Source: an uncultured Chloroflexia bacterium (lineage in GTDB: Bacteria > Chloroflexota > Limnocylindria > QHBO01). From it: 64,000 bases of DNA. Positions within the stretch are counted from its first letter, which is position 1. Each line of letters opens with the position of its first letter. The stretch lies in NCBI GenBank assembly GCA_963814375.1, contig CAWFCQ010000008.1, positions 96,001-160,000 of the forward strand. Reading direction: 5' to 3'. The position numbers were made by a program, and so were the translations under genes. This document shows positions 1-48,118 of the stretch, in pieces. The notes under the pieces were generated by a model, which worked only from the letters and a program-made list of their open reading frames with translations, was not told where the DNA came from and made no database searches.

Positions 1-3000
1 ACCCGTCAGGCGCGCAGTCGCCGCCCCAAGCTTCCGCCTCATATCCGGGGATATCGAAGATCTCCGAGGCCACATGGTCGCCGGGTGTCACCTCGTTTGT
101 CACCCCCCATTCGACGTCGACGCCATCGATCTGTGGCTGGAAGTCGTCCGCGGTAGCGGTGCCGCCGACGACCGTCTTCAGCAGGGTCAGTGTCGGTGCG
201 ATGTCGTCGTTGGTGATCGAGCAGGTCACCGGCTCGTCGCCGGCGGCGACGGTCACCGAGCCGGCGTCGAAGGCGCCGCCGTCACCGTTGCTGCAGGTCC
301 AGGCGCTGGGCTCGTAGCCGAGGACGGCCAGCTCGGCCAGGGTGTAGGTGCCGGGCGCGACCTCCAGCGTGGCGGCGGTGTAGGTGAAGGTGTCGGTCGG
401 GTCCTCGACCGCGGCGCCGAAGGTGAGCGCGCCGGCGCTGGTGGTGATGCCGAAGTCGTCGACCACCGCCGTGCCGCCGTCGTCGTTGACGACGACCTTC
501 TCGATGATCAGCTCGATGGGCTGGTCGTCGTTGGTGATCGAGCAGGTCACCGGCTCGTCGCCGGCGGCGACGGTCACCGAGCCGGCGTCGAAGGCGCCGC
601 CGTCACCGTTGCTGCAGGTCCAGGCGCTGGGCTCGTAGCCGAGGACGGCCAGCTCGGCCAGGGTGTAGGTGCCGGGCGCGACCTCCAGCGTGGCGGCGGT
701 GTAGGTGAAGGTGTCGGTCGGGTCCTCGACCGCGGCGCCGAAGGTGAGCGCGCCGGCGCTGGTGGTGATGCCGAAGTCGTCGACCACCGCCGTGCCGCCG
801 TCGTCGTTGACGACGACCTTCTCGATGATCAGCTCGATGGGCTGGTCGTCGTTGGTGATCGAGCAGGTCACCGGCTCGTCGCCGGCGGCGACGGTCACCG
901 AGCCGGCGTCGAAGGCGCCGCCGTCACCGTTGCTGCAGGTCCAGGCGCTGGGCTCGTAGCCGAGGACGGCCAGCTCGGCCAGGGTGTAGGTGCCGGGCGC
1001 GACCTCCAGCGTGGCGGCGGTGTAGGTGAAGGTGTCGGTCGGGTCCTCGACCGCGGCGCCGAAGGTGAGCGCGCCGGCGCTGGTGGTGATGCCGAAGTCG
1101 TCGACCACCGCCGTGCCGCCGTCGTCGTTGACGACGACCTTCTCGATGATCAGCTCGATCGGCTGGTCGTGTTGGTGATCGAGCAGGTCACCGGTCGTCG
1201 CCGGCGTCGATGGTGACCGAGATCGACGTCACCGGCGTCGAAGCCGTCGCCGCCGCCGTTGCTGCACGTCCAGGCGGCACGATGCGGCCGATGACTGGCT
1301 CGCGGCGCCGGTGCAGGCGATGCCGTGAGCGTCCAGCCGGCAGGCACGTTCTCAGTCACGATCTTCCCGTCGAACTGGCCTGGGCCGAAGGTGATGGGGT
1401 TGCCCGCGAGGGCCGGCGCCCCCGTGGTGGTGATGCCGAAGTCGTCGACACCGCCGTGCCGCCGTCGTCGTTGACGACGGTCTTCTCGATGATGAGCTCG
1501 ACCAGTTGGGTGTTCGTGTAGGTGCAGGTCGAGCCGCGTCACCGGGCAGCAGGGCGATGCTGGCCAAGCCGGTGGCGAGGGTGGTCGTGCCCTTCGAGCA
1601 GACCAGGCTGGCGAGCGGTCCAGCCGAGGACCGGCGAGGTCTCCTGGATGGTCGTGTTGGTGCCGGTCGCGTCGGCGCCGGTGAAGGTGAAGGTGACGGT
1701 GTTCGCTGTGCCCGAGGCGGCGTCGTCGTCGAGGCAGAAGGTGCCGCGCCTGGAAGAGCGTCCCGCCGCCGGTGCCGGTCGTCGCGTAGGTGAAGAACTG
1801 GGCGGCATCGGGCACGGCGTCCTTGGTGACCGAGACGTGGCATCCGCGGTGTTGGTGAACGTGCAGGTCGGGGCATCCCCGCCCGTGATGACCGCGCGCA
1901 CGGTGGTGTCGCCCGGATCGAAGCCGAGGGTGGCGCCCGGGGCGAAGGTGGCGCCGATGCCGGTGCCGATGGTGATCTCGGCGCCGACGGCGGAGCACAC
2001 GATGTTCGTGAGCGTCCAGCCGGCCTCAGGCAGCTCCTGGACGTCCTTGGTCCCGAGCTGGAGGCCGCTGAAGGGGAAGGGCGCGCTGGTCGTGGGGTTG
2101 GCGACCGCGGTGTTGCGGGTGAAGGGCGCGAGGCCCGTGCCATCGACCGCGTAGTCGAAGGTCGCCGTGCCGCCCACGGTCGTCTTCTCGATGTCGAGCG
2201 AGGCGTTCTGGGTGTTGGTGTAGGTGCAGGTCACCGCGTCACCGGGCAGCAGGGCGATGCTGGCGAGGCCGGTGGCCGGATTGGTCGTGCCCTTCGAGCA
2301 GACCAGGCTGGTGAGGGTCCAACCGGGGACCGGCAGGATCTCCCGGATCGTCTTGGGGCCGGTCGCGTCGGCGCCCGTGAAGGTGAAGGTGCAAGGTGTT
2401 CGCGGTGCCCGAGGCGGGATCGTCGTCGAGGAAGAAGCTCCCGCCCTGGAAGAGGGTCCCGCCGCCGGTGCCGGTCGTTGCGAACTGGAAGAGCTGGTCT
2501 GCGTTGGGCACGGCGTCCTTGGTGACCGTGATGGTGGCATCCGCGGTGTTGGTGAACGTGCAGGTCGGGGCATCCCCGCCCGTGATGACCGCGCGCACGG
2601 TGGTGTCGCCCGGATCGAAGCCGAGGGTGGCGCCCGGGGCGAAGGTGGCGCCGATGCCGGTGCCGATGGTGATCTCGGCGCCGACGGCGGAGCACACGAT
2701 GTTCGTGAGCGTCCAGCCGGCCTCAGGCAGCTCCTGGACGTCCTTGGTCCCGAGCTGGAGGCCGCTGAAGGGGAAGGGCGCGCTGGTCGTGGGGTTGGCG
2801 ACCGCGGTGTTGCGGGTGAAGGGCGCGAGGCCCGTGCCATCGACCGCGTAGTCGAAGGTCGCCGTGCCGCCCACGGTCGTCTTCTCGATGTCGAGCGAGG
2901 CGTTCTGGGTGTTGGTGTAGGTGCAGGAGACGTTGTTGCCCGCCTCGATGGCCACGCTCACGGTGGTGTCACCCGGATCGAAGCCGTCGCTGCCACCGGT

Positions 3001-39410: not shown

Positions 39411-41153
39411 GTGTCCATCTCGAGCACCTCGGCAAGCCTGCCTGTCTGGCGCGTCGCGGTCATCGGCATCGTCGGCCTCCTGGCCGTCGGCATCGGTGTC
39501 GCGGCGGGAGCGTTCCTCCTCAACACCCGTGCCGCGGCCCTCGGCGCCGGAGCGGCCTACGTGCCGGCCAGCGCCCCGCTCTACTTCGAGGTGCGCATCG
39601 AGCCATCGAGCGACGAGGATGTCGCGCTGCGCGAGCTGCTCGGCAGATTCCCGCCGATCGAGGGCATCGACCTCGCGCAGCCGCTCTACAGCCAGCTGGT
39701 CGAGAGTCTCGACGAGATGCTCCTCGAGGAGGGCGCCGAGCTCAGCTGGTCCGAGGACATCGAGCCGTGGTTCGATGGCACTGTCGCCGCAGCCGTGCTC
39801 GAGATTCCCACCGAAGCGCTCGGCGCGCAGACCGATCCGATGGAGGCGGCGATGGAGCCTCCCATGGTCGTCCTGATTGGCGTGACCGACCGCGCCGCCG
39901 CCGAGGCCGCGATCGCGGACCTCTTCGCCCAATCTCCAGACGGCCCGACGGAGTTCACCGAGCAGGTGCACGACGGCGTCACGATCCGGTCCGACGTCGA
40001 GGAGCAAGGCGCCTACGCGGTCACCGACGATCAGCTGATCGTCGCTCCCGGGCCCGATGACATCATCGCCGCGCTCGACGCTCACGGCAGCGGCGAGGCG
40101 GCGCTTTCCGGGGCCGAGTCGTTCGCTGAGATGGCTGCAGCGCTGCCCGACGATTGGCTCGCCTTCAGCTTCTACGACTTTACCGATCTGATGGCCGCAG
40201 CGCTCGCGCAGGCCGGCGCCGAGTCGCCCGCGATGGCGGACGCGCTGGCCCCGTTGCTCGAGAGCCAGCCGCTTCGCGGCGCGGTGGCGGTCACCGCTGC
40301 CGGCGATCGGATCGCGGTCGACGCGACGACCGACGCGCCGACGGGGCCGTTCGCGGCCACCAACACGGATCGTGGCCTGGCCGACGAGGTGCCGGGCGAC
40401 GTCCTGTACTACGCAGAGGGCGGCAGCATCGGCACCTCGCTCGGCGCGCTCATCGGCCCCATCAAGGACGCTGCCGCCGAGACGCCGGAGGGAGCCGAGG
40501 GGGTCGCCATGATCGAGGCGGCGCTCGGCGCTGATCTGGAGGAGGTCGTCGCCTGGATCGGCGACGGCGCCATGGCCGTTGGCTGGGACGGGAGCGAGCC
40601 GTACGGCGGCCTGGTCCTCGTGCCGACCGACATCGACGCGGCGGAGCGGCGGCTCGACCAGCTTGCCACCTTCGCGGGGCTCGGCTCGCTCGATCCGTCG
40701 AGCGGGATCAGCGTCGCCGAGCGCGAGGTCGGATCGGTGACCGTCACGGCCATCAGCTTCGAGGCTCCCGCCGAGATGATCGACCCGACGCTACCGGTCC
40801 CGGAGACGGTCACCGTCGAATACGCAGTCACCTCTGACCGTGTCATCGTCGGCGTCGGCGAGACGTTCGTGGATCGGGTCCTGGGACTCGATGCCGGCGA
40901 CTCGCTCGCCTCGAACGATCGCTTCACCGGTGCGGTGGACGACCTCGGCGGTCCGAACAACGCCGGTGTGGCGTGGGTCGACCTGACGGGCGTGCGCGAG
41001 GCAGTCGAGTCCGCGCTCCCGATGACGGGGGCCGACGCCGACAAGTACACGACCGAGATTCAGCCCTGGCTGCTGCCACTCGATCGGCTCGTGGCCGTGA
41101 CGCGGCTCGAGGGCGACCAGCTCGTCCAGCGCTCGGCACTGCTGGTCGAGTGA
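39411..41153 (+). CDS. Membrane-anchored DUF3352-like protein
   Basis: N-terminal TM then an acidic domain with YVPA.A..Y and DIEPW.G and internal duplication. Confidence 0.75.
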   Translation: MSISSTSASLPVWRVAVIGIVGLLAVGIGVAAGAFLLNTRAAALGAGAAYVPASAPLYFEVRIEPSSDEDVALRELLGRFPPIEGIDLAQPLYSQLVESLDEMLLEEGAELSWSEDIEPWFDGTVAAAVLEIPTEALGAQTDPMEAAMEPPMVVLIGVTDRAAAEAAIADLFAQSPDGPTEFTEQVHDGVTIRSDVEEQGAYAVTDDQLIVAPGPDDIIAALDAHGSGEAALSGAESFAEMAAALPDDWLAFSFYDFTDLMAAALAQAGAESPAMADALAPLLESQPLRGAVAVTAAGDRIAVDATTDAPTGPFAATNTDRGLADEVPGDVLYYAEGGSIGTSLGALIGPIKDAAAETPEGAEGVAMIEAALGADLEEVVAWIGDGAMAVGWDGSEPYGGLVLVPTDIDAAERRLDQLATFAGLGSLDPSSGISVAEREVGSVTVTAISFEAPAEMIDPTLPVPETVTVEYAVTSDRVIVGVGETFVDRVLGLDAGDSLASNDRFTGAVDDLGGPNNAGVAWVDLTGVREAVESALPMTGADADKYTTEIQPWLLPLDRLVAVTRLEGDQLVQRSALLVE

Positions 41154-41476
41154 CCCCACGGGACCTGCCGCCGCCGCTGCGGCCGCTGGATCCCGCGAGT
41201 GGCTCCGGAGTCGGCCCTGCGCGCGACCTGATTCGCGACCACGGCCTCGAGCCGATGGTCTGGAGCAACGGCCCCGGATATCGCTACACGTCCCACATGC
41301 ACGCCACCACGAAGCTGCTGGTGTGCGCCGACGGCTCGATCACCTTCCTCGTGGGCGATGATTCGGTCCCCGTCGAGCTGCGGGCCGGTCAGGGGTTCGA
41401 GCTGCCGCCCGGCACCTGGCACGCTGCGGCGGTCGGCCCGGAGGGCTGCACCTGCGTCGAGGGGCATCGGCCCTAG
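41150..41476 (+). CDS. Cupin domain protein
   Basis: WSNGPG.RY..H.H...L..G....LPPGT.H.A. Confidence 0.85.
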   Translation: MTPRDLPPPLRPLDPASGSGVGPARDLIRDHGLEPMVWSNGPGYRYTSHMHATTKLLVCADGSITFLVGDDSVPVELRAGQGFELPPGTWHAAAVGPEGCTCVEGHRP

Positions 41477-41769
41477 CGCTTGGCTATCCGGTCCGCCGCC
41501 TTGCGGGCCTCGACCTCGAACGGGTTGTCGCGGTACCAGCTCCCGCCACTACGGCGCGCGCCGAGCGATGCGGCGAGGTAGGTGATGGGGAAGACCACCC
41601 CGTGCCGAGCCCACTGGCGGACATGCTCCAGCTCGTGCTCGAGCTCGGTCTCATCGAGCGTGCGCCAGGCGATGATCGTGCGTCCGAGCGTGATCGCCAG
41701 CCAGTTGTCGAGCACCACTCGTCCCGGGCGGCGCATCCAGGGCAGGACCAGCACGCGATGCGGGGTCAA
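41473..41769 (-). CDS. Small HExxH zincin-like protein (DUF4157-like)
   Basis: AITLG..I...HELEHVRQW...Y..NPFEVEA. Confidence 0.8.
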   Translation of the reverse strand: MTPHRVLVLPWMRRPGRVVLDNWLAITLGRTIIAWRTLDETELEHELEHVRQWARHGVVFPITYLAASLGARRSGGSWYRDNPFEVEARKAADRIAKR

Positions 41770-42692
41770 CGTTGCGGGTCGGGGTGGAGAAGGAGATCGC
41801 GCCGGTCTCCCCAGCGGTCGCGGAAGCGGTAGAAGTTGCGCTTGCTCAGCCGATCGCGCTCTGTCTCGGGCAGGCTCGTCCAGCCGCGGTGCTCATGGCG
41901 CTCGAGTGGCAGGGCCACGGTCCGGATGGCGCGCCAGCCCGCGTCGCGAACGGCGAAGCTGAAGTCGAGGTCCGCGTTGCGATACCAACGGAAACGCCGG
42001 TCGAAGCCGCGGACGGCGCGGAGCGCGTCGCGCCGCACCGCGAGGCAGTAGCCCTCGATGGCATCGACCTCTCCGGGCGGCGCCTCGGAGAACTCGCGGG
42101 CGTCGCCGCTCGTTACGCCCCAGCCACCGGCGACGCCGACGTCCGGATCGGCGAGGGCTGCCAGCAGCGGCGAGACGAAGTCGCCGACCGGCTCGAGCGA
42201 AGTGTCGAGGAGCACGGTCGCCTCGCCCCCGGAGCTGCGCATCCCGAGCGTCCGGCTGTCGGCCCAGCCGAGCCGGCCCTCGGTGGCAAGCATCACTGGC
42301 TCGACGGGAAGCTCGACAGCGGCCACGAGGCCCGCGACCTCGAAATCGGGCGCGTTGACCACCAGGACCAGCTCCCAGGCCACCGGCGGCGGATGCGCCG
42401 CCAGCCCGCGCAGGCAGCGCTCGAGATCGTCGGGATGGTCCTCCGCCACCACCTGGATCGATGCCTGCACCGTGGCGTCAGCATCGAGCCGCTCCGCCCC
42501 GTCCGCGGCCGTCTGCGGGCGAGTCAGCGCGGGTCGAGCGGTCGAGCCATCGAGGCTGTCGACGACCTCCCAGCCGAGTTCGGCCAGCTCGTCGCGGATC
42601 GCATCGGCGCGATGCCAGTCCCGGTCCGAGCGCGCCGCCGAGCGCTCGTCGAGCAGGCGTCGGACATCGTCGGGAAGGGTCGGGGAGGGCAT
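41766..42692 (-). CDS. GT2 glycosyltransferase with N-terminal CysS/YqeB C-terminal-like domain
   Basis: L..R..AR...DW..AD.IRDEL...G..V.D...G, then a GT-A fold (ELVLVVN, LLDTS, GFDRRF..Y..D.DFS). Confidence 0.85.
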   Translation of the reverse strand: MPSPTLPDDVRRLLDERSAARSDRDWHRADAIRDELAELGWEVVDSLDGSTARPALTRPQTAADGAERLDADATVQASIQVVAEDHPDDLERCLRGLAAHPPPVAWELVLVVNAPDFEVAGLVAAVELPVEPVMLATEGRLGWADSRTLGMRSSGGEATVLLDTSLEPVGDFVSPLLAALADPDVGVAGGWGVTSGDAREFSEAPPGEVDAIEGYCLAVRRDALRAVRGFDRRFRWYRNADLDFSFAVRDAGWRAIRTVALPLERHEHRGWTSLPETERDRLSKRNFYRFRDRWGDRRDLLLHPDPQR

Positions 42693-42842
42693 GAAACGGA
42701 AGTACTCCTGCCCCTGGCCCGAATGTACCGGGCGGCGAGAGGGCACCGCAACCTTACTATCCGGCCACGAGCCGCACCTTTCCGCACCTGCCCGTGCGGA
42801 CGGCACGTGCGAAGTGCCCGAACACGAGGTCGAACGCAACCG

Positions 42843-43028
42843 ATGATGACGAACGAAGTCGGGAAGCTGCTGACGGCGGCCGAGGTCGCCGAGATGCTGC
42901 ACCTGCACGTCAACACCGTCAAGCGTCTCGGAGACCGCGGCGAGCTTCCCTTCTTCCGGGTCTGCAAGCGTGGTGACCGTCGCTTCCGGTACGACGACGT
43001 GCTCGACTTCCTGCACCGCGCCAAGTAG
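42843..43028 (+). CDS. Small MerR-like/excisionase HTH (BldC-like) DNA-binding protein
   Basis: LLTAAEVAEMLHLHVNTVKR...GEL...R..RGDRRF; GAGG RBS; own terminator. Confidence 0.88.
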   Translation: MMTNEVGKLLTAAEVAEMLHLHVNTVKRLGDRGELPFFRVCKRGDRRFRYDDVLDFLHRAK

Positions 43029-43089
43029 CCCACCCCAATTGAATGCCCCCGGCCGATTGCCGGGTGCGGGCCCTGCCAGGGGCCGCCGC

Positions 43090-43130
43090 GACGACCGCCG
43101 AGGTGCCATTTCTCGGCGGTCGTCTGTTTC
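43090..43130 (+). terminator. Intrinsic terminator
   Basis: gacgaccgccgag-N9-ctcggcggtcgtc followed by tgtttc. Confidence 0.8.
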
Positions 43131-43147
43131 TCGCATAATCGCGCGGC

Positions 43148-44314
43148 ATGACTGACGAAGCGACCCAGCGCCTGGACGAGGGCCGGCGCCTCCTCGACTC
43201 GGGCGACCCCGAAGCGGCGCTGACGATCCTGGCGCCGCTGGCGGCTCACCCAGATCCCGAGCTCGCCGGTGAGGCGTGGCTGCTCACCGGAACCGCCCGC
43301 TACCGGATGGATGACGAGCCGGGCGCCAAAGCCGCCTGGCAGGCGGCGGCGGAGCGTGGAGGCAGCAGCGCCTGGCTCGGATGGCGCAGCGTCGCCGAGC
43401 AGCAGGTGCGTGATGGCGAGATCGAGGCCGCGATAGCCTCCTATCGCGAGGCTGATCGCCGGGCGCCGGCGGCCGAGCGGGGTGCGATCGCCAATCGCAT
43501 CGCCTGGCTCCTCAAGGAAACCGGCCATGACTTCGCCGCGCGGAGGCAGTTCAACCGAGCCCGCGGGGCATACGGCTCCCAGACTCCGATCGTCACCTAT
43601 GCCCTCATCTCGATGTGCGTCGTCCTCTTCGGCATCGACGTCATCCTCAGCCAGGGCGCGACGCTGGGTGGCGGCTTCTTCGGGGGTGTCGGCCCGATCG
43701 GTCAGCAGCACCTCATCAGCGCCGGGGCAGTCGCGGAGGGTGAGTGGTGGCGCATCTTCACCAGCGCCTTCATCCACCTGGGGCCGATTCACCTGGCCTT
43801 CAACATGTACGTGCTGTTTCTGTACGGCCCGCTCGTCGAGCGCATGTACGGGCACGTGGAGTTCGCCGCGATCTACCTGCTCTGCGCAGCGGGCGGCAGC
43901 GTGCTGACGATCCTCGTCGACCCTGCCCAGTCGGCGGCCGGAGCGTCGGGGGCCATCTTCGGCCTCATCGGCCTCCTCTTCGTCGTCTCTCGGCGGCATC
44001 ACACCGTCCTCGGACGGGAGGCTCGCAGCATGGTCGCCGGGATCGGCAGCTACCTGATGTTCCTGCTCGTCTTCACCTTCCTCGTCCCGGGCATCAGCTG
44101 GACCGGGCACGTCGGCGGCCTCGTGGTCGGTGCGACCCTCGGGTTCCTCCTGCCGCCCACCGGGGTTGCCACCATGGCCGGCATGTGGCGCACGCCCAGC
44201 GGCGAGCGGCTGATGGGCGCGATGCCGCGGCCGGTGCGCGCCGCGATCTACGCTGCGGTGGGCCTCCTGCTCGCGGTCGGGTCGTACGTGGCAATCGAGC
44301 GGCTGGTGGGGTAG
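43148..44314 (+). CDS. Rhomboid intramembrane protease with N-terminal TPR-like domain
   Basis: WWRIFTSAFIH, HLAFNM, GASG (Ser), GHVGG (His). Confidence 0.93.
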   Translation: MTDEATQRLDEGRRLLDSGDPEAALTILAPLAAHPDPELAGEAWLLTGTARYRMDDEPGAKAAWQAAAERGGSSAWLGWRSVAEQQVRDGEIEAAIASYREADRRAPAAERGAIANRIAWLLKETGHDFAARRQFNRARGAYGSQTPIVTYALISMCVVLFGIDVILSQGATLGGGFFGGVGPIGQQHLISAGAVAEGEWWRIFTSAFIHLGPIHLAFNMYVLFLYGPLVERMYGHVEFAAIYLLCAAGGSVLTILVDPAQSAAGASGAIFGLIGLLFVVSRRHHTVLGREARSMVAGIGSYLMFLLVFTFLVPGISWTGHVGGLVVGATLGFLLPPTGVATMAGMWRTPSGERLMGAMPRPVRAAIYAAVGLLLAVGSYVAIERLVG

Positions 44315-44319
44315 CGAAC

Positions 44320-44751
44320 GTGCGAGGATTGGCCGCGGCCGGATGTCTCCTCGTCGTCCTTGCGGGCTGCGCGACCGAGCCGCCGACGCCCAGCGGATCG
44401 GCTGTCTTCTTCCCCCGCCATGACTCGCCGCTCGGGACCGGCGAAGCGGCGCTGCTCGAGGGCAGGGCGAGATTCGCCGACGGCTGCCTCTGGGTAGTGA
44501 CCGAAGCGGGCGACCGGTTCCTGCTGCTGTGGCCCGCCGATACGGAGCTCGGGTTGCTCAACAGCCAGCCGGCGGTCTTCGGCCCTGACCGTGCGCTGCT
44601 GTACGAGGTAGGGGACATCGCCGACGATATCTACGGAATCGGCGGCAGCGAGACGACGCCGGAGATCGCCCAAGAGCTCGTCGGCGAGATCCCGGAGCCC
44701 TGCGCTCGCGACTCGTTCTGGGTGGTGTCGGAGGTTGTGGACGGACCCTGA
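44320..44751 (+). CDS. Hypothetical lipoprotein
   Basis: LAGC lipobox; ALLEG...DGCL...LLWP. Confidence 0.75.
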   Translation: MRGLAAAGCLLVVLAGCATEPPTPSGSAVFFPRHDSPLGTGEAALLEGRARFADGCLWVVTEAGDRFLLLWPADTELGLLNSQPAVFGPDRALLYEVGDIADDIYGIGGSETTPEIAQELVGEIPEPCARDSFWVVSEVVDGP

Positions 44752-45565: not shown

Positions 45566-46012
45566 TCAGCCTTCCGATCCCTCCAGCAGGGCGATCAGCG
45601 CCTCGGTCGCGGCGTCCACCTCGTCCGGTGGCGCCAGCTCGTCGATCAGCCGAGTCACGGTCGCGAAGCCCTCCTGCAGCGCGGCGGCACGCTCCGGGGC
45701 GAGGGCGTCAAGCGGGGCAGCGACTGACTCGACCGCCGCGCTGGCGCGCGCCACGGCCGCCTCCGCCGCCGCGTACTCAGGCTCGCTAACGATCGCGCCG
45801 TCGGGTGCTCCCTCCCGATACTCGATCGCGGCCACCTCGAGCAGCCCACCCGCATCGGTGAGCTCGGCCTGCACCGCCGCCGCCGCCGCGTCGAGGTCGG
45901 GCGGCCGCGTGCCGAAGATGACGTAGCCGGCGAGGAAGCCGACCAGCAGCGCGACCACGGCGAGCCCTGCGGCGAGCGGCCAGGGCGACCGACGCGGACG
46001 ATAGATCGCCAT
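45566..46012 (-). CDS. Membrane-anchored helical protein, last gene of the FTR1 operon
   Basis: N-terminal TM; IEYREG...EY..A motif; start overlaps the upstream stop. Confidence 0.75.
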   Translation of the reverse strand: MAIYRPRRSPWPLAAGLAVVALLVGFLAGYVIFGTRPPDLDAAAAAVQAELTDAGGLLEVAAIEYREGAPDGAIVSEPEYAAAEAAVARASAAVESVAAPLDALAPERAAALQEGFATVTRLIDELAPPDEVDAATEALIALLEGSEG

Positions 46013-48118
46013 CAGGCGGCGCCCAGCAGGACGGCGACGACGTCATCGTCCCCCATGGCGCACTCGGCCAGGACGGCGGACCGGACCTGTGCCGGATCCG
46101 AGATGAGGCCGAGGTCGACCAGCCGAGGCCCGCGCAGGACGCGCACGACGGGCGCCACCGCGATCGGGCCCAGTCGTCGCGATGCACCGTCGATCGCACT
46201 TGCCACCCGAAGCCCCAGCTCCGTCCCGGAGCCCGTCAGGATGGCCGCCTCGCCCTCGGCATCCACCGCGCCGCCGGCGTCCACGACGACGTAGCGCTGC
46301 CGCGCGCCATCCGACCCGGTGACGAAGAGGTGGTGTGGGCCGACGCGGACGAGGCGACGCGCGTCCGGTCCCAGGCGCTCGGTGGCGATGGCCGCAACCG
46401 CCGCATCGGCAAGCTCGACCGACGGCGCGCCGGGGATCGTCAGCGGGCCGTGCGCAGCGACACGCAGCAGCCGACGCTCGGGGTCGGTCTCGGACTCGAT
46501 CTGGAGCGTCTCGGGGTCGGCTCCGGCTTCGATCGCCGCCCGCTCCGCGGCTCGATGCAGCTCCAGGACCCCCGCCGCATCCTGGCTGGCGATCACCCGC
46601 TCGAGCTCGATGCGGACCAGCGAGAGAGCGTCGCCGACCGAGCTGATCACCTCGGCCTCGGCCGGGATCCGCCACGCCAGCCGCCGGCGACGCCCGACCT
46701 CGGGAATGAGCGCCCCCGCGCCGCCGCCGAGGCCGACGAGGTCCGGCTTGGCGAGGCGATGTTCGGCGAGCAGGTCGTCGACGATGGGGGTGACCTTCCC
46801 GGCCGCCGCCTCGAGCGCCTGGAGCGCGAGGCGCTCGCCCGGCTGACCCAGCAGCCGCCCCAGCGCGGCGAACGCTGCCCTTGCCGACGCCGGGTCGCCC
46901 GCCGCGTAGGCGCCGGCCGGGACGCCGTCGACCGCGTTTGCGGCACAGGTCAGGGTGATGGCGAATCGCTCGCCGCTCGGTGTCTCGAGCATCGCGTACT
47001 CGGCGGGGTCGCCCTCGCGGGGCGCGACGAGCCGCGCGACGGCGCCGTCGAGGCGGGCGGCATCGGTGAAGGTGGCGTAGGGAAGGCCGGCGATATGCGC
47101 CGACCGGGGACCGACGTCGGCGATTCGCGAGCGGCCCCAGCGTCGCTCGATGCGCAGCATGCTGCCGCCGCCGATCCCGGCGACACGGACGTCGAGGCTG
47201 CGCACGCAGGTCAGATGGTCGAGCACCCGGACGTAGGCGAGGACCGGTCGCCCGCCCTTGACGATGCTGACATTGGTGCTCGTCCCGCCCACTTCGACCA
47301 CGATCCCGTCGAGGAGCCCGGTGTGCCGCAGTGCGCCGGCGACCGATGCGGCCGGGCCGCTGAAGGCGGTGAGCAGCGGATGGCGCCGCATCGTGCGCAC
47401 GTCGGCCGCACCACCGTCGCCACGCATGACCAGCAGCGGCGCATCGGGTGCCACGCGACGCACCGAGGCGTCGACCACGTCGGCGGTTGCAAGGGCTCGG
47501 GGCAGGATGCCGGCATTGATCGCGGCGGTGACGGTGCGCATCTCGAGGCCGTACATGCCGGTCAGCTCGTGTCCGGCGCAGGCGGGGATCCCGAGCCGTG
47601 CGGCCACGGCGAGCGCCTCCGACTTCGATCGACGGGTCATCGACGCCGAACGCCTCGTTGACGGCCAGGGCCTCCGCGCCCGCGTCGATCAGCCGGCGGA
47701 TGGCGGCTTCCAGCGCGGCCTCATCGGTGCCGTCGGTGACATCGACCACGGCCGACACGGTCTCGAGCCGACGTCCCGGCGCGAGGGCGATCGAGCCGAT
47801 GGCGGTCCGCTTGCGCACGCGGCCGAGATCGGGCCGCCGACCGAGGCCGAGGATGCCCACCCGCGCCGTGTCGCCCTCGAGCAGCGCGTTGACCGCCTGG
47901 GTCGTCGAGTGGGCCACGCTCGAGATCGGCCCTCCGCCGATTGCGGCGACCTCGTCGGCGACGCGCTCGACCGCGGCCGCGACGCCGGCCGCGACGCCGT
48001 CCGGGTCAGCGTGGGTGGTCGGTACGACGGCGCGGGCGACGATCGCCAGCGTCGCGACGTCGCAGGCGACGGCCTTCGTGAACGTGCCGCCAACGTCGAC
48101 GCCGATCCTCACCGCCAT
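46012..48118 (-). CDS. Hydantoinase/oxoprolinase A-like ASKHA protein; frameshift near 47625
   Basis: IGVDVGGTFT, HSTT.AVNALLEG, RTVTAAINA, SGPAAS, EVGGTST, GGGS. Confidence 0.88.

Follow-up and report, generated by a model that had tools for sequence, protein, structure and literature searches.

The gene at positions 41766..42692 (minus strand) of the window, the whole 64-kb stretch of chloroflexotal DNA that was analysed, raises the question of why a glycosyltransferase should begin with the domain by which cysteinyl-tRNA synthetase (CysRS) reads an anticodon, and on which acceptor such a protein could act.

Domain organisation of the protein

The stop-free open reading frame is translated into a protein of 308 aa, designated P0001; its ATG start codon is kept in close relatives and lies about 13 nt downstream of an AGGAG sequence. 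P0001 is a two-domain protein, consisting of a copy of the CysRS C-terminal domain (CysS_C), a linker of about 20 residues, and a GT2-type GT-A domain. The preliminary description of this DNA had proposed an in-frame join of a CysRS C-terminal pattern to a GT2 domain and had called for a profile-based check of both parts; the join is borne out by the uninterrupted frame, and both PF23493 (CysS_C) and PF00535 (Glycos_transf_2) matched above their cut-offs, which establishes the identities of the two domains. In the AF2 models, the folds are of the CysRS C-terminal and GT-A types, respectively. The full-length model has a pLDDT of 93.7 and a pTM of 0.85, with the minimum of the whole protein (block means of 67–70) falling in the poorly conserved linker, residues 55–74 (42471..42530, minus strand).

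P0001 itself can be ruled out as a cysteine--tRNA ligase, since the cysS equivalog model TIGR00435 matched only over positions 420–462 of 466, with 20.9 bits against a cut-off of 340, and a Pfam search found no class I catalytic domain (PF01406). The same search detected no membrane-associated domain. The closest NCBIfam models, the mycofactocin glycosyltransferase MftF (TIGR03965) and EpsD, both scored far under their cut-offs, and identification as MftF was rejected at 32.8 bits versus 280. In the databases, members of this family are labelled 'glycosyltransferase', 'hypothetical protein' or, wrongly, 'cysteinyl-tRNA synthetase'.

The N-terminal domain and its putative anticodon-contact residues

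The N-terminal domain (residues 4–54; 42531..42683, minus strand) was recognised by its homology to the CysRS C-terminal anticodon-binding domain. Pfam model PF23493 matched residues 4–43 with 36.9 bits (cut-off 23, E = 3.9e-9), and it is present in 118 of 120 homologues among the matches listed. The likeness of the first 50 or so residues to a CysRS C-terminus, read in the preliminary description from a string that corresponds to residues 13–50, is therefore confirmed, and a mismatch of the N-terminus to the CysS profile, which that description had named as a refuting case, was not found. A sequence search of the PDB returned CysRS C-termini only (3tqo, E = 5e-6), and residues 415–459 of E. 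coli CysRS (1li5/1u0b) align without gaps to residues 9–53 of the query. The AF2 model of residues 1–60 alone (pLDDT 81.6) had as its top Foldseek match in the PDB chain B of 1u0b, the E. coli CysRS–tRNACys complex, with an rmsd of 1.2 Å over 46 columns, 39% identity, a query TM-score of 0.71, a probability of 1.00 and an E-value of 5.5e-3. The domain is modelled as two helices (8–22 and 26–38) followed by a beta-hairpin (41–46, 49–54).

According to a published account of 1u0b, Arg427 and Asp436 form hydrogen bonds with G34, Trp432 stacks on this base, and water bridges join it to Asp436 and Arg423 (PMC12684709); in a second source, positions 427, 432, 436 and 439 are the anticodon interaction sites that were mutated (PMC13449415). 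In the gap-free alignment, the E. coli residues R423, R427, W432, D436 and R439 that these texts indicate correspond to R17, R21, W26, D30 and R33 of P0001, which also has G40 and D45. Across the 66 representatives having the N-domain (one per 50%-identity cluster), R17 is kept in 65 (98%), R21 in 63 (95%), an aromatic residue at position 26 in 65, and D30 in all 66, followed by R33 in 59, G40 in 64 and D45 in 66. No column of the glycosyltransferase domain reaches 100%, the highest being G142 and G189 (97%) and R221 (96%). Few columns of the family alignment are thus as well conserved as those of the residues aligned with the G34 contacts. Such conservation suggests that the domain may bind tRNA, but the contact residues could instead be kept for the stability of the domain.

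The glycosyltransferase domain

The GT-A (GT2) domain, together with a family-specific basic C-terminal helix, occupies residues 75–300 (41793..42470, minus strand) and contains the strings RHEHRGW (265–271) and ERDRLSKRNFYRF (278–290). Pfam model PF00535 matched residues 87–202 barely above its cut-off (24.4 versus 23.3 bits). A profile of the family matched the GT2 enzyme 6yv7 with an E-value of 2.4e-17, as well as chondroitin synthase and DPMS, and a Foldseek search with the full-length model returned GT-A enzymes, including ppGalNAc-T2 (E = 5e-13), 6p61 and WrtF.

The DxD metal/nucleotide-sugar motif is not found in P0001. Its place is taken, according to the profile alignments, by D163-T-S165-L-E167 (42192..42206, minus strand), and the family consensus is D-x-S-x-E. 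The atypical LLDTS (residues 161–165) that the preliminary description had placed at the DxD position does stand there, since the corresponding column of the family profile is aligned to DAD in 6yv7 and 6p61 and to DCD and DSD in chondroitin synthase (2z86/2z87). The aspartate after strand 2 (motif VVDDGS.D), which binds the nucleotide in GT2 enzymes, is not found either: P0001 reads LVVNAPDFE (V112, N113), while this column has D in 40 of 75 representatives of the family and the fused CysRS-GT2 relatives described below carry VVDNGS.D. The string ADLD stands where GT2 enzymes carry an 'EDxD' motif, and D241 may be the catalytic-base aspartate, judging by GT2 motifs.

At least 98% of 121 close homologues retain D163, S165, E167 and D241; the strings YRNADLD and RHEHRGW are retained in about 98% or more, and for D210 and R220-R221 the figure is 90% or higher, so that the domain is under purifying selection. 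Over the 75 representatives, the candidate catalytic residues vary, D163 being found in 80%, S165 in 75%, E167 in 83% and D241 in 66 (88%), and the variation of D163, E167 and D241 counts against the mechanism proposed below.

Distribution of the family and fusions to cysteinyl-tRNA synthetase

In a sample of 301 Chloroflexota genomes, 77 (roughly a quarter) contained homologues, and 64 of 301 (roughly a fifth) did so in a sample of Actinomycetota. A search for cultured or model organisms with the gene yielded MAG records only. The family set comprised 75 representatives, one per 50%-identity cluster, aligned with hmmalign.

In 11 of these 75 representatives, a CysRS catalytic part lies upstream of the glycosyltransferase, and eight of the 11 are full length (722–818 aa). 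The N-terminal parts of the full-length fusions match TIGR00435 over positions 1–464 of 466 with 357–422 bits (cut-off 340), the HIGH and KMSKS motifs and the Zn ligands are kept in seven of the eight, and their GT2 scores reach 39–72 bits, again in seven of the eight. At least 26 of the 77 Chloroflexota carrier genomes have matches to PF01406 and to the glycosyltransferase within one open frame. The fused CysRS was additional to a canonical cysS in all three near-complete fusion genomes checked, and each of five near-complete genomes had, apart from it, a canonical cysS that includes a CysS_C domain. In the tree of glycosyltransferase domains, P0001 falls within a clade of standalone forms only. 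The possibility that the fusion would not be found elsewhere, raised earlier as a second refuting case, can be set aside, for the architecture is conserved and widespread in Chloroflexota and Actinomycetota, and the tie of the family to CysRS is stronger than could be seen from a single sequence. That some relatives are fused to a whole second CysRS suggests that tRNA-Cys is the target of this sugar enzyme.

No aligned N-domain was present in nine of the 75 representatives. About 11 of the 64 Actinomycetota matches begin only at profile positions 52–65, and in five of six such loci examined there was no N-domain within about 1.5–2 kb. The glycosyltransferase part can therefore exist without the N-domain.

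The genome that carries P0001 has its canonical cysS on contig C2 and two near-identical, ordinary tRNA-Cys(GCA) genes. BLAST searches of three fusion genomes revealed a single tRNA-Cys-like gene per genome, and one match was obtained in one of two standalone-form genomes searched. A dedicated second tRNA-Cys was accordingly dismissed, the single gene per fusion genome being a weak negative that gives no sign of one. A CysRS paralogue resembling MshC, without a CysS_C domain, is located about 22 kb away on contig C8; it scored 380.6 bits with TIGR03447 against a cut-off of 485.

Genomic neighbourhood

Immediately 3' of the gene, the list of open reading frames contains a frame of 97/98 aa with an HExxH string (41473..41769, minus strand), whose listed TTG start overlaps the stop codon of the glycosyltransferase gene, and the two are probably co-transcribed. 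Of the 20 closest loci, 17 have this frame; at the more distant loci L021–L035 it was not found. A divergent gene (42843..43028, plus strand) encodes a 61-aa protein of the HTH_17/excisionase family (BldC-like); 19 of the 20 closest loci carry it with 87–100% identity. A terminator-like hairpin (43090–43124) follows this gene. The arrangement DLH-rhomboid-HTH, divergent from GT-small ORF-cupin-DUF3352, is shared only among the close relatives L001–L020; since 11 loci of other families have no neighbour in common with it, conserved operon partners were dismissed. No conserved tRNA-modification neighbours were found in the related loci, including these 11, and neither the window nor the 11 other loci examined contain a glycan or cell-wall cluster around the gene. 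No match to a riboswitch or T-box was obtained with Rfam at E ≤ 1 in 40500–44500, no sigma-70-like promoter was found, and a role in anti-phage defence was rejected, as PADLOC matched neither the glycosyltransferase nor the small frame. Six of 35 related loci have another CysS_C-like match close to the gene in tail-to-tail orientation, and in one of these (L027) it was confirmed to be cysS.

Phylogenetic profiles and neighbourhoods, proposed in the preliminary description as a check, showed CysRS fusions and a tail-to-tail cysS at some loci, and no consistent link to que or tgt genes; the interpretation offered there is partly supported.

Possible functions

It is conceivable, and in our judgement nearly an even call, that P0001 is docked on tRNA-Cys by its N-domain and that the substrate of its GT-A domain is tRNA-Cys or Cys-tRNA-Cys. 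The N-domain, as a copy of the alpha/beta module by which the GCA anticodon is recognised in CysRS, would dock the protein on the anticodon loop, and the GT-A domain would next act on the docked tRNA-Cys or its cysteinyl ester. The fused relatives would combine this step with charging on a single polypeptide; in the genome studied here, charged tRNA-Cys would reach the standalone protein from the housekeeping CysRS (contig C2). The identities of the domains, the fold, the conservation of the G34-contact residues throughout the family and the occurrence of the CysRS fusions are established by the analysis; the binding of tRNA, the catalysis and the choice of donor and acceptor are inferred. Points against this mechanism are also the homologues that lack the N-domain, the absence of conserved tRNA-modification neighbours and, weakly, the single tRNA-Cys-like gene of each fusion genome. 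Action in cis on the cysteinyl ester would be geometrically awkward, since the glycosyltransferase adjoins the domain that presumably binds the anticodon, far from the acceptor end of the tRNA.

A different acceptor is possible as well, if rather doubtful: P0001 could be an ordinary cytosolic GT2 enzyme whose acceptor is not RNA but, for instance, a protein, a lipid-linked glycan or a small molecule. Its CysS_C domain, a legacy of a CysRS fusion, would then serve in regulation or docking, for example by coupling activity to tRNA-Cys status or by tethering the enzyme to CysRS. The resemblance of the glycosyltransferase part to classical soluble GT2 enzymes (6yv7, E = 2e-17; chondroitin synthase; DPMS), the ADLD string, the distant affinity to MftF and EpsD, and the homologues without the N-domain, including nine of the 75 representatives, fit such an enzyme, but it leaves unexplained why the anticodon-contact residues are the best-kept columns across two phyla, and neither a membrane-associated domain nor a glycan or cell-wall cluster was detected in the places searched. 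It is unlikely that the GT-like domain is non-catalytic and that the protein is an accessory factor sequestering, chaperoning or delivering tRNA-Cys. The non-canonical DxD, the loss of the strand-2 aspartate in P0001 and in 35 of the 75 representatives, the lack of any invariant acidic residue in the domain and the marginal PF00535 score would agree with this role; however, D163, S165, E167, D241 and D210 are strongly kept in the close homologues, and the fused relatives combine higher GT2 scores with a canonical VVDNGS.D.

Two known pathways were also considered. The preliminary description had invoked queuosine (Q), and a bacterial queuosine glycosyltransferase would be analogous to the animal QTGAL (B3GNTL1), which together with QTMAN glycosylates animal Q (PMC11755703). 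The fused gene adjoins queA or tgt in two loci (L056 and L059), but among the 77 carrier genomes only two, members of a single genus, have a tgt neighbour, and nine of the 77, six of which are 94–96% complete, have no tgt match at E ≤ 1e-30; on the latter ground the link was rejected. The N-domain moreover keeps the residues that read unmodified G34, and, to our knowledge, tRNA-Cys (GCA) is not a substrate of TGT, so that the queuosine reading is highly improbable. Scarcely more credit is given to a mycothiol-like thiol pathway, in which P0001 would substitute for MshA beside the MshC-like paralogue and an MshB-like deacetylase (204.9 bits versus a cut-off of 224). Profile searches of the genome found no MshA or MshD match over the cut-off, with nothing near it for MshA (best 150 versus 462), and a glycosyltransferase fused to a cysteine ligase would suit such a route. 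The gene distributions disagree with this coupling, which is retained as a weak rival only: ten carrier genomes of one family (f2) have a single PF01406 match, whereas families without the glycosyltransferase always have two (f13, 18/18; f30, 7/7; f17, 6/6). The fused CysRS parts, unlike MshC, are full cysS equivalogs with an anticodon domain, and the anticodon-contact residues would be left without a role.

Returning to tRNA-Cys as the target, one could propose, with considerable reserve, a wider tRNA-Cys-directed glycosyltransferase system, so far undescribed in bacteria, in which the portable 50-residue reader aims the GT-A domain at a nucleoside of the anticodon arm, which would be glycosylated, or at Cys-tRNA-Cys, whose activated cysteine would be modified or transferred. 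On this view, the fusions present across much of Chloroflexota would be self-contained 'charge-and-modify' enzymes, and the retention of an extra complete CysRS by those genomes would be explained. No CysRS-glycosyltransferase protein was found in full-text literature searches; we know of no bacterial enzyme that glycosylates tRNA, nor of a glycosyltransferase aimed by the anticodon-binding domain of a synthetase. Should the mechanism hold, a tRNA modification or an aminoacyl-tRNA-dependent pathway new to science would be revealed, the additional CysRS of many Chloroflexota would have an explanation, and a minimal, transferable module for recognition of the GCA anticodon would be at hand. Should it fail, the family would still show clearly how a metabolic enzyme has recruited a domain from a synthetase.

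Comparison with known systems

With the CysRS C-terminal domain (PF23493; about residues 403–461 in E. coli, PDB 1U0B), P0001 shares the fold and the sequence signature, including, in the light of the publications cited above, the counterparts of R423, R427, W432, D436 and R439. It differs in that the domain is N-terminal on a non-synthetase protein without the CysRS catalytic and helical-bundle domains; also, G40 is followed by an aromatic residue (W/Y/F) in 60 of 66 members of the family and mostly by I, V or M in the aligned CysRS sequences. With GT2 enzymes of GT-A fold, such as that of Pyrobaculum (6YV7), chondroitin synthase (2Z86) and ppGalNAc-transferases, it has in common the fold, profile homology and collinear motifs, including the strand that ends in the first Asp of DxD. 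In contrast to these enzymes, the family has D-x-S-x-E for DxD, P0001 lacks the strand-2 aspartate, and RHxHRxW, the basic C-terminal helix and a putative RNA-recognition domain are added.

The CysRS-GT2 fusions, MAG records from Roseiflexaceae, Dormibacteria and SAR202 annotated 'cysteine--tRNA ligase', belong to the same glycosyltransferase family and have the same order of CysS_C, linker and glycosyltransferase, residues 5–302 of P0001 aligning to about 430–760; P0001 lacks their catalytic and helical-bundle part of about 420 aa.

The proposed logic of these fusions would resemble that of mycobacterial LysX, a LysRS fused to an MprF-type lysyl-phosphatidylglycerol synthase: an extra synthetase copy is joined to a transferase that consumes its aminoacyl-tRNA and is found standalone elsewhere. 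LysX differs in its synthetase, in the fold of its transferase and in being a membrane protein. In MshC, as in P0001, parts of CysRS are in non-translational use, but MshC keeps the catalytic domain without the anticodon domain, a pattern also shown by the paralogue on contig C8, and P0001 is the reverse. QTGAL has a GT-A fold, and the family of P0001 differs from it in being independent of the queuosine pathway and in a tRNA recognition that would proceed by other means. As a glycosyltransferase acting on an anticodon-loop nucleoside, QTGAL is the nearest functional precedent (PMC11755703).

Domain organisation and predicted fold

The gene at 41766–42692 (minus strand) encodes a protein of 308 residues, and an AGGAG motif lies about 13 nt 5' of its ATG, which is kept in close relatives. 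Pfam assigns residues 4–43 to CysS_C (PF23493; E 3.9e-9, 36.9 bits with a cut-off of 23) and residues 87–202 to Glycos_transf_2 (24.4 bits with a cut-off of 23.3). NCBIfam gave sub-threshold matches only, such as MftF (32.8 against 280) and cysS (20.9 against 340), the latter covering positions 420–462 of 466. Searched by sequence, the single protein matched CysRS C-termini and no other solved structures. An AF2 model built from a 50-sequence family alignment (pLDDT 93.7, pTM 0.85) comprises helices 8–22 and 26–38, a hairpin at 41–54, a linker and an alpha/beta domain, and as a whole it matches GT-A enzymes, including ppGalNAc-T2 (E 5e-13), 6p61 and WrtF. Residues 1–60 modelled alone (pLDDT 81.6) have as their best structural match 1u0b_B, where they align with the C-terminal domain of tRNA-bound E. 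coli CysRS (rmsd 1.2 Å over 46 columns, 39% identity), with an E-value (5.5e-3) that is modest because the domain is small. In the family profile alignment, the LLDTS motif (residues 161–165) stands opposite DAD, DCD, DSD and DAD in four solved GT2 domains. Pfam, structure and motif alignment therefore bear out both parts of the preliminary description, which had recognised a CysRS C-terminal type of N-terminus joined in frame to a GT2 domain with an atypical motif at the DxD position.

Judged from sequence, the family consists of GT2 enzymes with the putative anticodon reader of a synthetase attached. Automatic annotations already show this pairing of domains; full-text searches covering the main text of openly accessible articles turned up no work on it or on CysRS–GT fusions.

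Conservation of the two domains

In the E. coli complex, Arg427 and Asp436 form hydrogen bonds with G34, Trp432 stacks on it, and water bridges it to Asp436 and Arg423 (PMC12684709); positions 427, 432, 436 and 439 were re-engineering targets as anticodon interaction sites in a second report (PMC13449415). An ungapped HMMER alignment of residues 9–53 with E. coli 415–459 maps these contacts to R17, R21, W26, D30 and R33 of the window protein. Among the 66 representatives having the N-domain, D30 and D45 are present in all, R17 in 65, an aromatic residue at position 26 likewise in 65, G40 in 64, R21 in 63 and R33 in 59. In a separate N-domain alignment of 27 sequences, drawn from loci in the two phyla, R17, R21, A29, D30, R33, G40 and D45 do not vary.

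No invariant column was found in the GT domain across family representatives. Its top columns are G142 and G189 (97% each) and R221 (96%); the candidate catalytic residues D241, E167 and D163 are at 88%, 83% and 80%, and S165 is at 75%. In this glycosyltransferase family of two phyla, constraint is strongest at the residues predicted to read G34 of tRNA-Cys. Of the 75 representatives, 40 have the Asp after strand 2; the fused forms have a canonical VVDNGS.D there, while the window protein has LVVNAPDFE and lacks it, and the predicted donor site is unusual. Within the close subfamily (121 sequences), conservation is about 98% or higher for D163, S165, E167, YRNADLD, RHEHRGW and the basic C-terminal helix and at least 90% for D210 and R220–R221; therefore, the GT domain is under selection.

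Fusion to complete CysRS

Eight representatives of 722–818 aa are a complete CysRS followed by the same GT domain as in the window protein, and three more are N-terminally truncated fusions. The N-terminal halves of the fusions score 357–422 bits on the cysS equivalog (cut-off 340), with matches spanning nearly the whole model, C-terminal domain included, and HIGH, KMSKS and the zinc ligands are kept in seven of the eight full-length proteins. In the eighth, the metagenomic P0222 (745 aa), these positions are degenerate, CysS_C and GT look intact, and aminoacylation activity may, to judge from its motifs, have been lost. The public label of the fusions is 'cysteine--tRNA ligase' (Roseiflexaceae, Dormibacteria, SAR202).

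Combining GT and PF01406 searches of the 77 Chloroflexota carrier genomes, both matches shared a single contig and open frame in at least 26; among the matches listed, six genomes have fused and standalone (CysS_C–linker–GT) copies together. All five near-complete genomes checked have, as a gene apart, a canonical cysS that includes a CysS_C domain, three with the fusion and two with the standalone form, and the fused CysRS is therefore an additional copy in those three. The genome of the window has a normal cysS (470 aa, contig C2). Six of 35 related loci have another CysS_C-like match within 1–2 kb of the GT gene, in tail-to-tail orientation, confirmed as cysS in one (L027). On a FastTree phylogeny of the GT part (75 representatives, midpoint-rooted without outgroup), all 11 fused forms fall into one large clade, intermixed with standalone forms, and the clade of the window protein holds standalone forms only. 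Evolution has repeatedly kept a GT of this family physically joined to CysRS.

Distribution

The window comes from a Chloroflexota bacterium of Limnocylindria type, as do the MAGs of all the closest loci, and its genome is 2.5 Mb and 89% complete; a look-up of organism names of family members returned MAG records only. The architecture is common: of 8000 candidates scored in a word-indexed search, 2048 matched at E<=0.001. Among the best 120 of these (68–98% identity), 115 have both Pfam domains, under the source names 'GT2 family glycosyltransferase', 'hypothetical protein' and 'cysteinyl-tRNA synthetase'. When the representatives of all 50%-identity clusters, one for each, were searched exhaustively, 476 matched at E<=1e-10 and, at the stricter E<=1e-30, 108. 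ESM Atlas clusters automatically named for both domains come from Chloroflexota and Actinomycetota. Homologues were found in 77 of 301 sampled Chloroflexota genomes (E<=1e-15) and in 64 of 301 sampled Actinomycetota genomes (E<=1e-30; 61/298 in the published count, three carriers being flagged unpublished). About 52 of the 64 Actinomycetota matches start at profile position 12 or before and therefore include the N-domain; about 11 start at positions 52–65. Five of six examined Actinomycetota loci without a fused N-domain have none within 1.5–2 kb, and the sixth has one in another frame. One Actinomycetota genome (L102, G418:C4) has a CysS_C-like N-domain at 2261–2410 (minus strand, HMM E 4.8e-21) immediately 5' of its GT part at 1513–2226 (minus strand), but in a different frame, which a frameshift, a natural split of the gene or a sequencing error could explain.

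Genomic context

On its upstream side, the GT gene has as neighbours a very conserved HTH_17/excisionase-family gene, divergently oriented, and a TPR-rhomboid gene, and on its downstream side a small HExxH ORF, a cupin and a DUF3352 gene; this order is shared only among the 20 closest loci. The first of these, BldC-like (42843–43028, plus strand, 61 aa), is 87–100% identical in 19 of the 20, much above its neighbours, and a terminator-like hairpin follows 3' of it (43090–43124). The HExxH (HELEH) ORF (41473–41769, minus strand, 97/98 aa), found in 17 of the 20, starts, as listed, at a TTG that overlaps the GT gene's stop codon; Pfam, NCBIfam and PADLOC gave no match for it, and ESM Atlas offers DUF4157/eCIS_core clusters as a lead (score 0.94). 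No Rfam element was found around the GT gene, and no defence-system match for it or for the small ORF. A hydantoinase/oxoprolinase-like gene at 46012–48118 (minus strand) is apparently split into two overlapping frames near 47600–47640: a 691-aa ORF matches Hydant_A_N in its first 165 residues only and is then Arg-rich, and a 542-aa ORF in the other frame appears to continue the protein. A frameshift or assembly error could explain this.

Just outside the window, 22 kb from the GT gene, profile matches identify a 436-aa MshC-like CysRS paralogue (contig C8, about 160.3–161.6 kb; 825–2135 of locus L052; minus strand) with HIGH, KMSKS and zinc ligands and no anticodon domain; it scores 380.6 bits against an MshC cut-off of 485, and 403 bits with the cysS model. 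The same genome has an MshB-like gene (C7:63179–64030, 204.9 bits against 224); searches for MshA and MshD there gave nothing near either cut-off. Limnocylindria could have a partial or variant mycothiol-like pathway. This genome also has two tRNA-Cys(GCA) genes (C4:432704–432777 and C8:553296–553370), differing by one inserted D-loop base, and ARAGORN reports odd 'tRNA-???' genes at C5:276821–276921 (four-base anticodon ccgc) and C6:85218–85310. In one Chloroflexota genus, tgt adjoins the CysRS–GT2 fusion (L059, G104:C75, divergent; G203:C348), its PF01702 match being in two pieces (model positions 1–90 and 91–355).

Possible function

Since the predicted G34 readers are the top constraint and CysRS joining is repeated, we favour, tentatively and at somewhat less than even confidence, the most economical reading: the N-domain would have kept its binding to the anticodon loop of tRNA-Cys, and GT function would need this tRNA. 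An ordinary GT2 enzyme with a non-RNA acceptor, using CysS_C for regulation or docking, would agree with the GT2 layout, which is classical, and with the existence of homologues that lack the N-domain, but it gives no account of the conservation pattern and seems rather unlikely. Still less probable is a tRNA-binding factor with a non-catalytic GT domain: the degenerate donor motifs would suit it, while the active-site positions strictly kept in the close subfamily conflict with it. A role in a mycothiol-like pathway, together with the MshC-like and MshB-like genes, is very improbable, being contradicted by gene distribution: ten carriers in family f2 have a single PF01406 match, whereas two occur throughout the GT-less families f13 (18/18), f30 (7/7) and f17 (6/6). 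The queuosine glycosylation mentioned in the preliminary description has hardly any likelihood left; queA or tgt adjoins the fused gene in two loci, but tgt is adjacent in only two of the 77 carriers, which belong to a single genus, and nine carriers, including six that are 94–96% complete, gave no tgt match.

The tRNA-Cys reading builds on domain identity, fold, conservation and distribution, from which we infer binding, catalysis, donor and acceptor. Against it count the subgroup without the N-domain, the variation of candidate catalytic residues across the family, and tRNA-modification genes not being consistently nearby. The prediction is specific, directly testable and surprising to tRNA and synthetase specialists. 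The N-domain would dock on the anticodon loop and the GT domain would require the docked tRNA-Cys, which could be the substrate through either an anticodon-arm nucleoside or the cysteinyl ester. Action in cis on the ester would be awkward, since the anticodon is far from the acceptor end, and this too counts against the reading. Mycobacterial LysX is an extra synthetase copy fused to a transferase that consumes aminoacyl-tRNA, and the cysteinyl-ester option would follow a similar logic.
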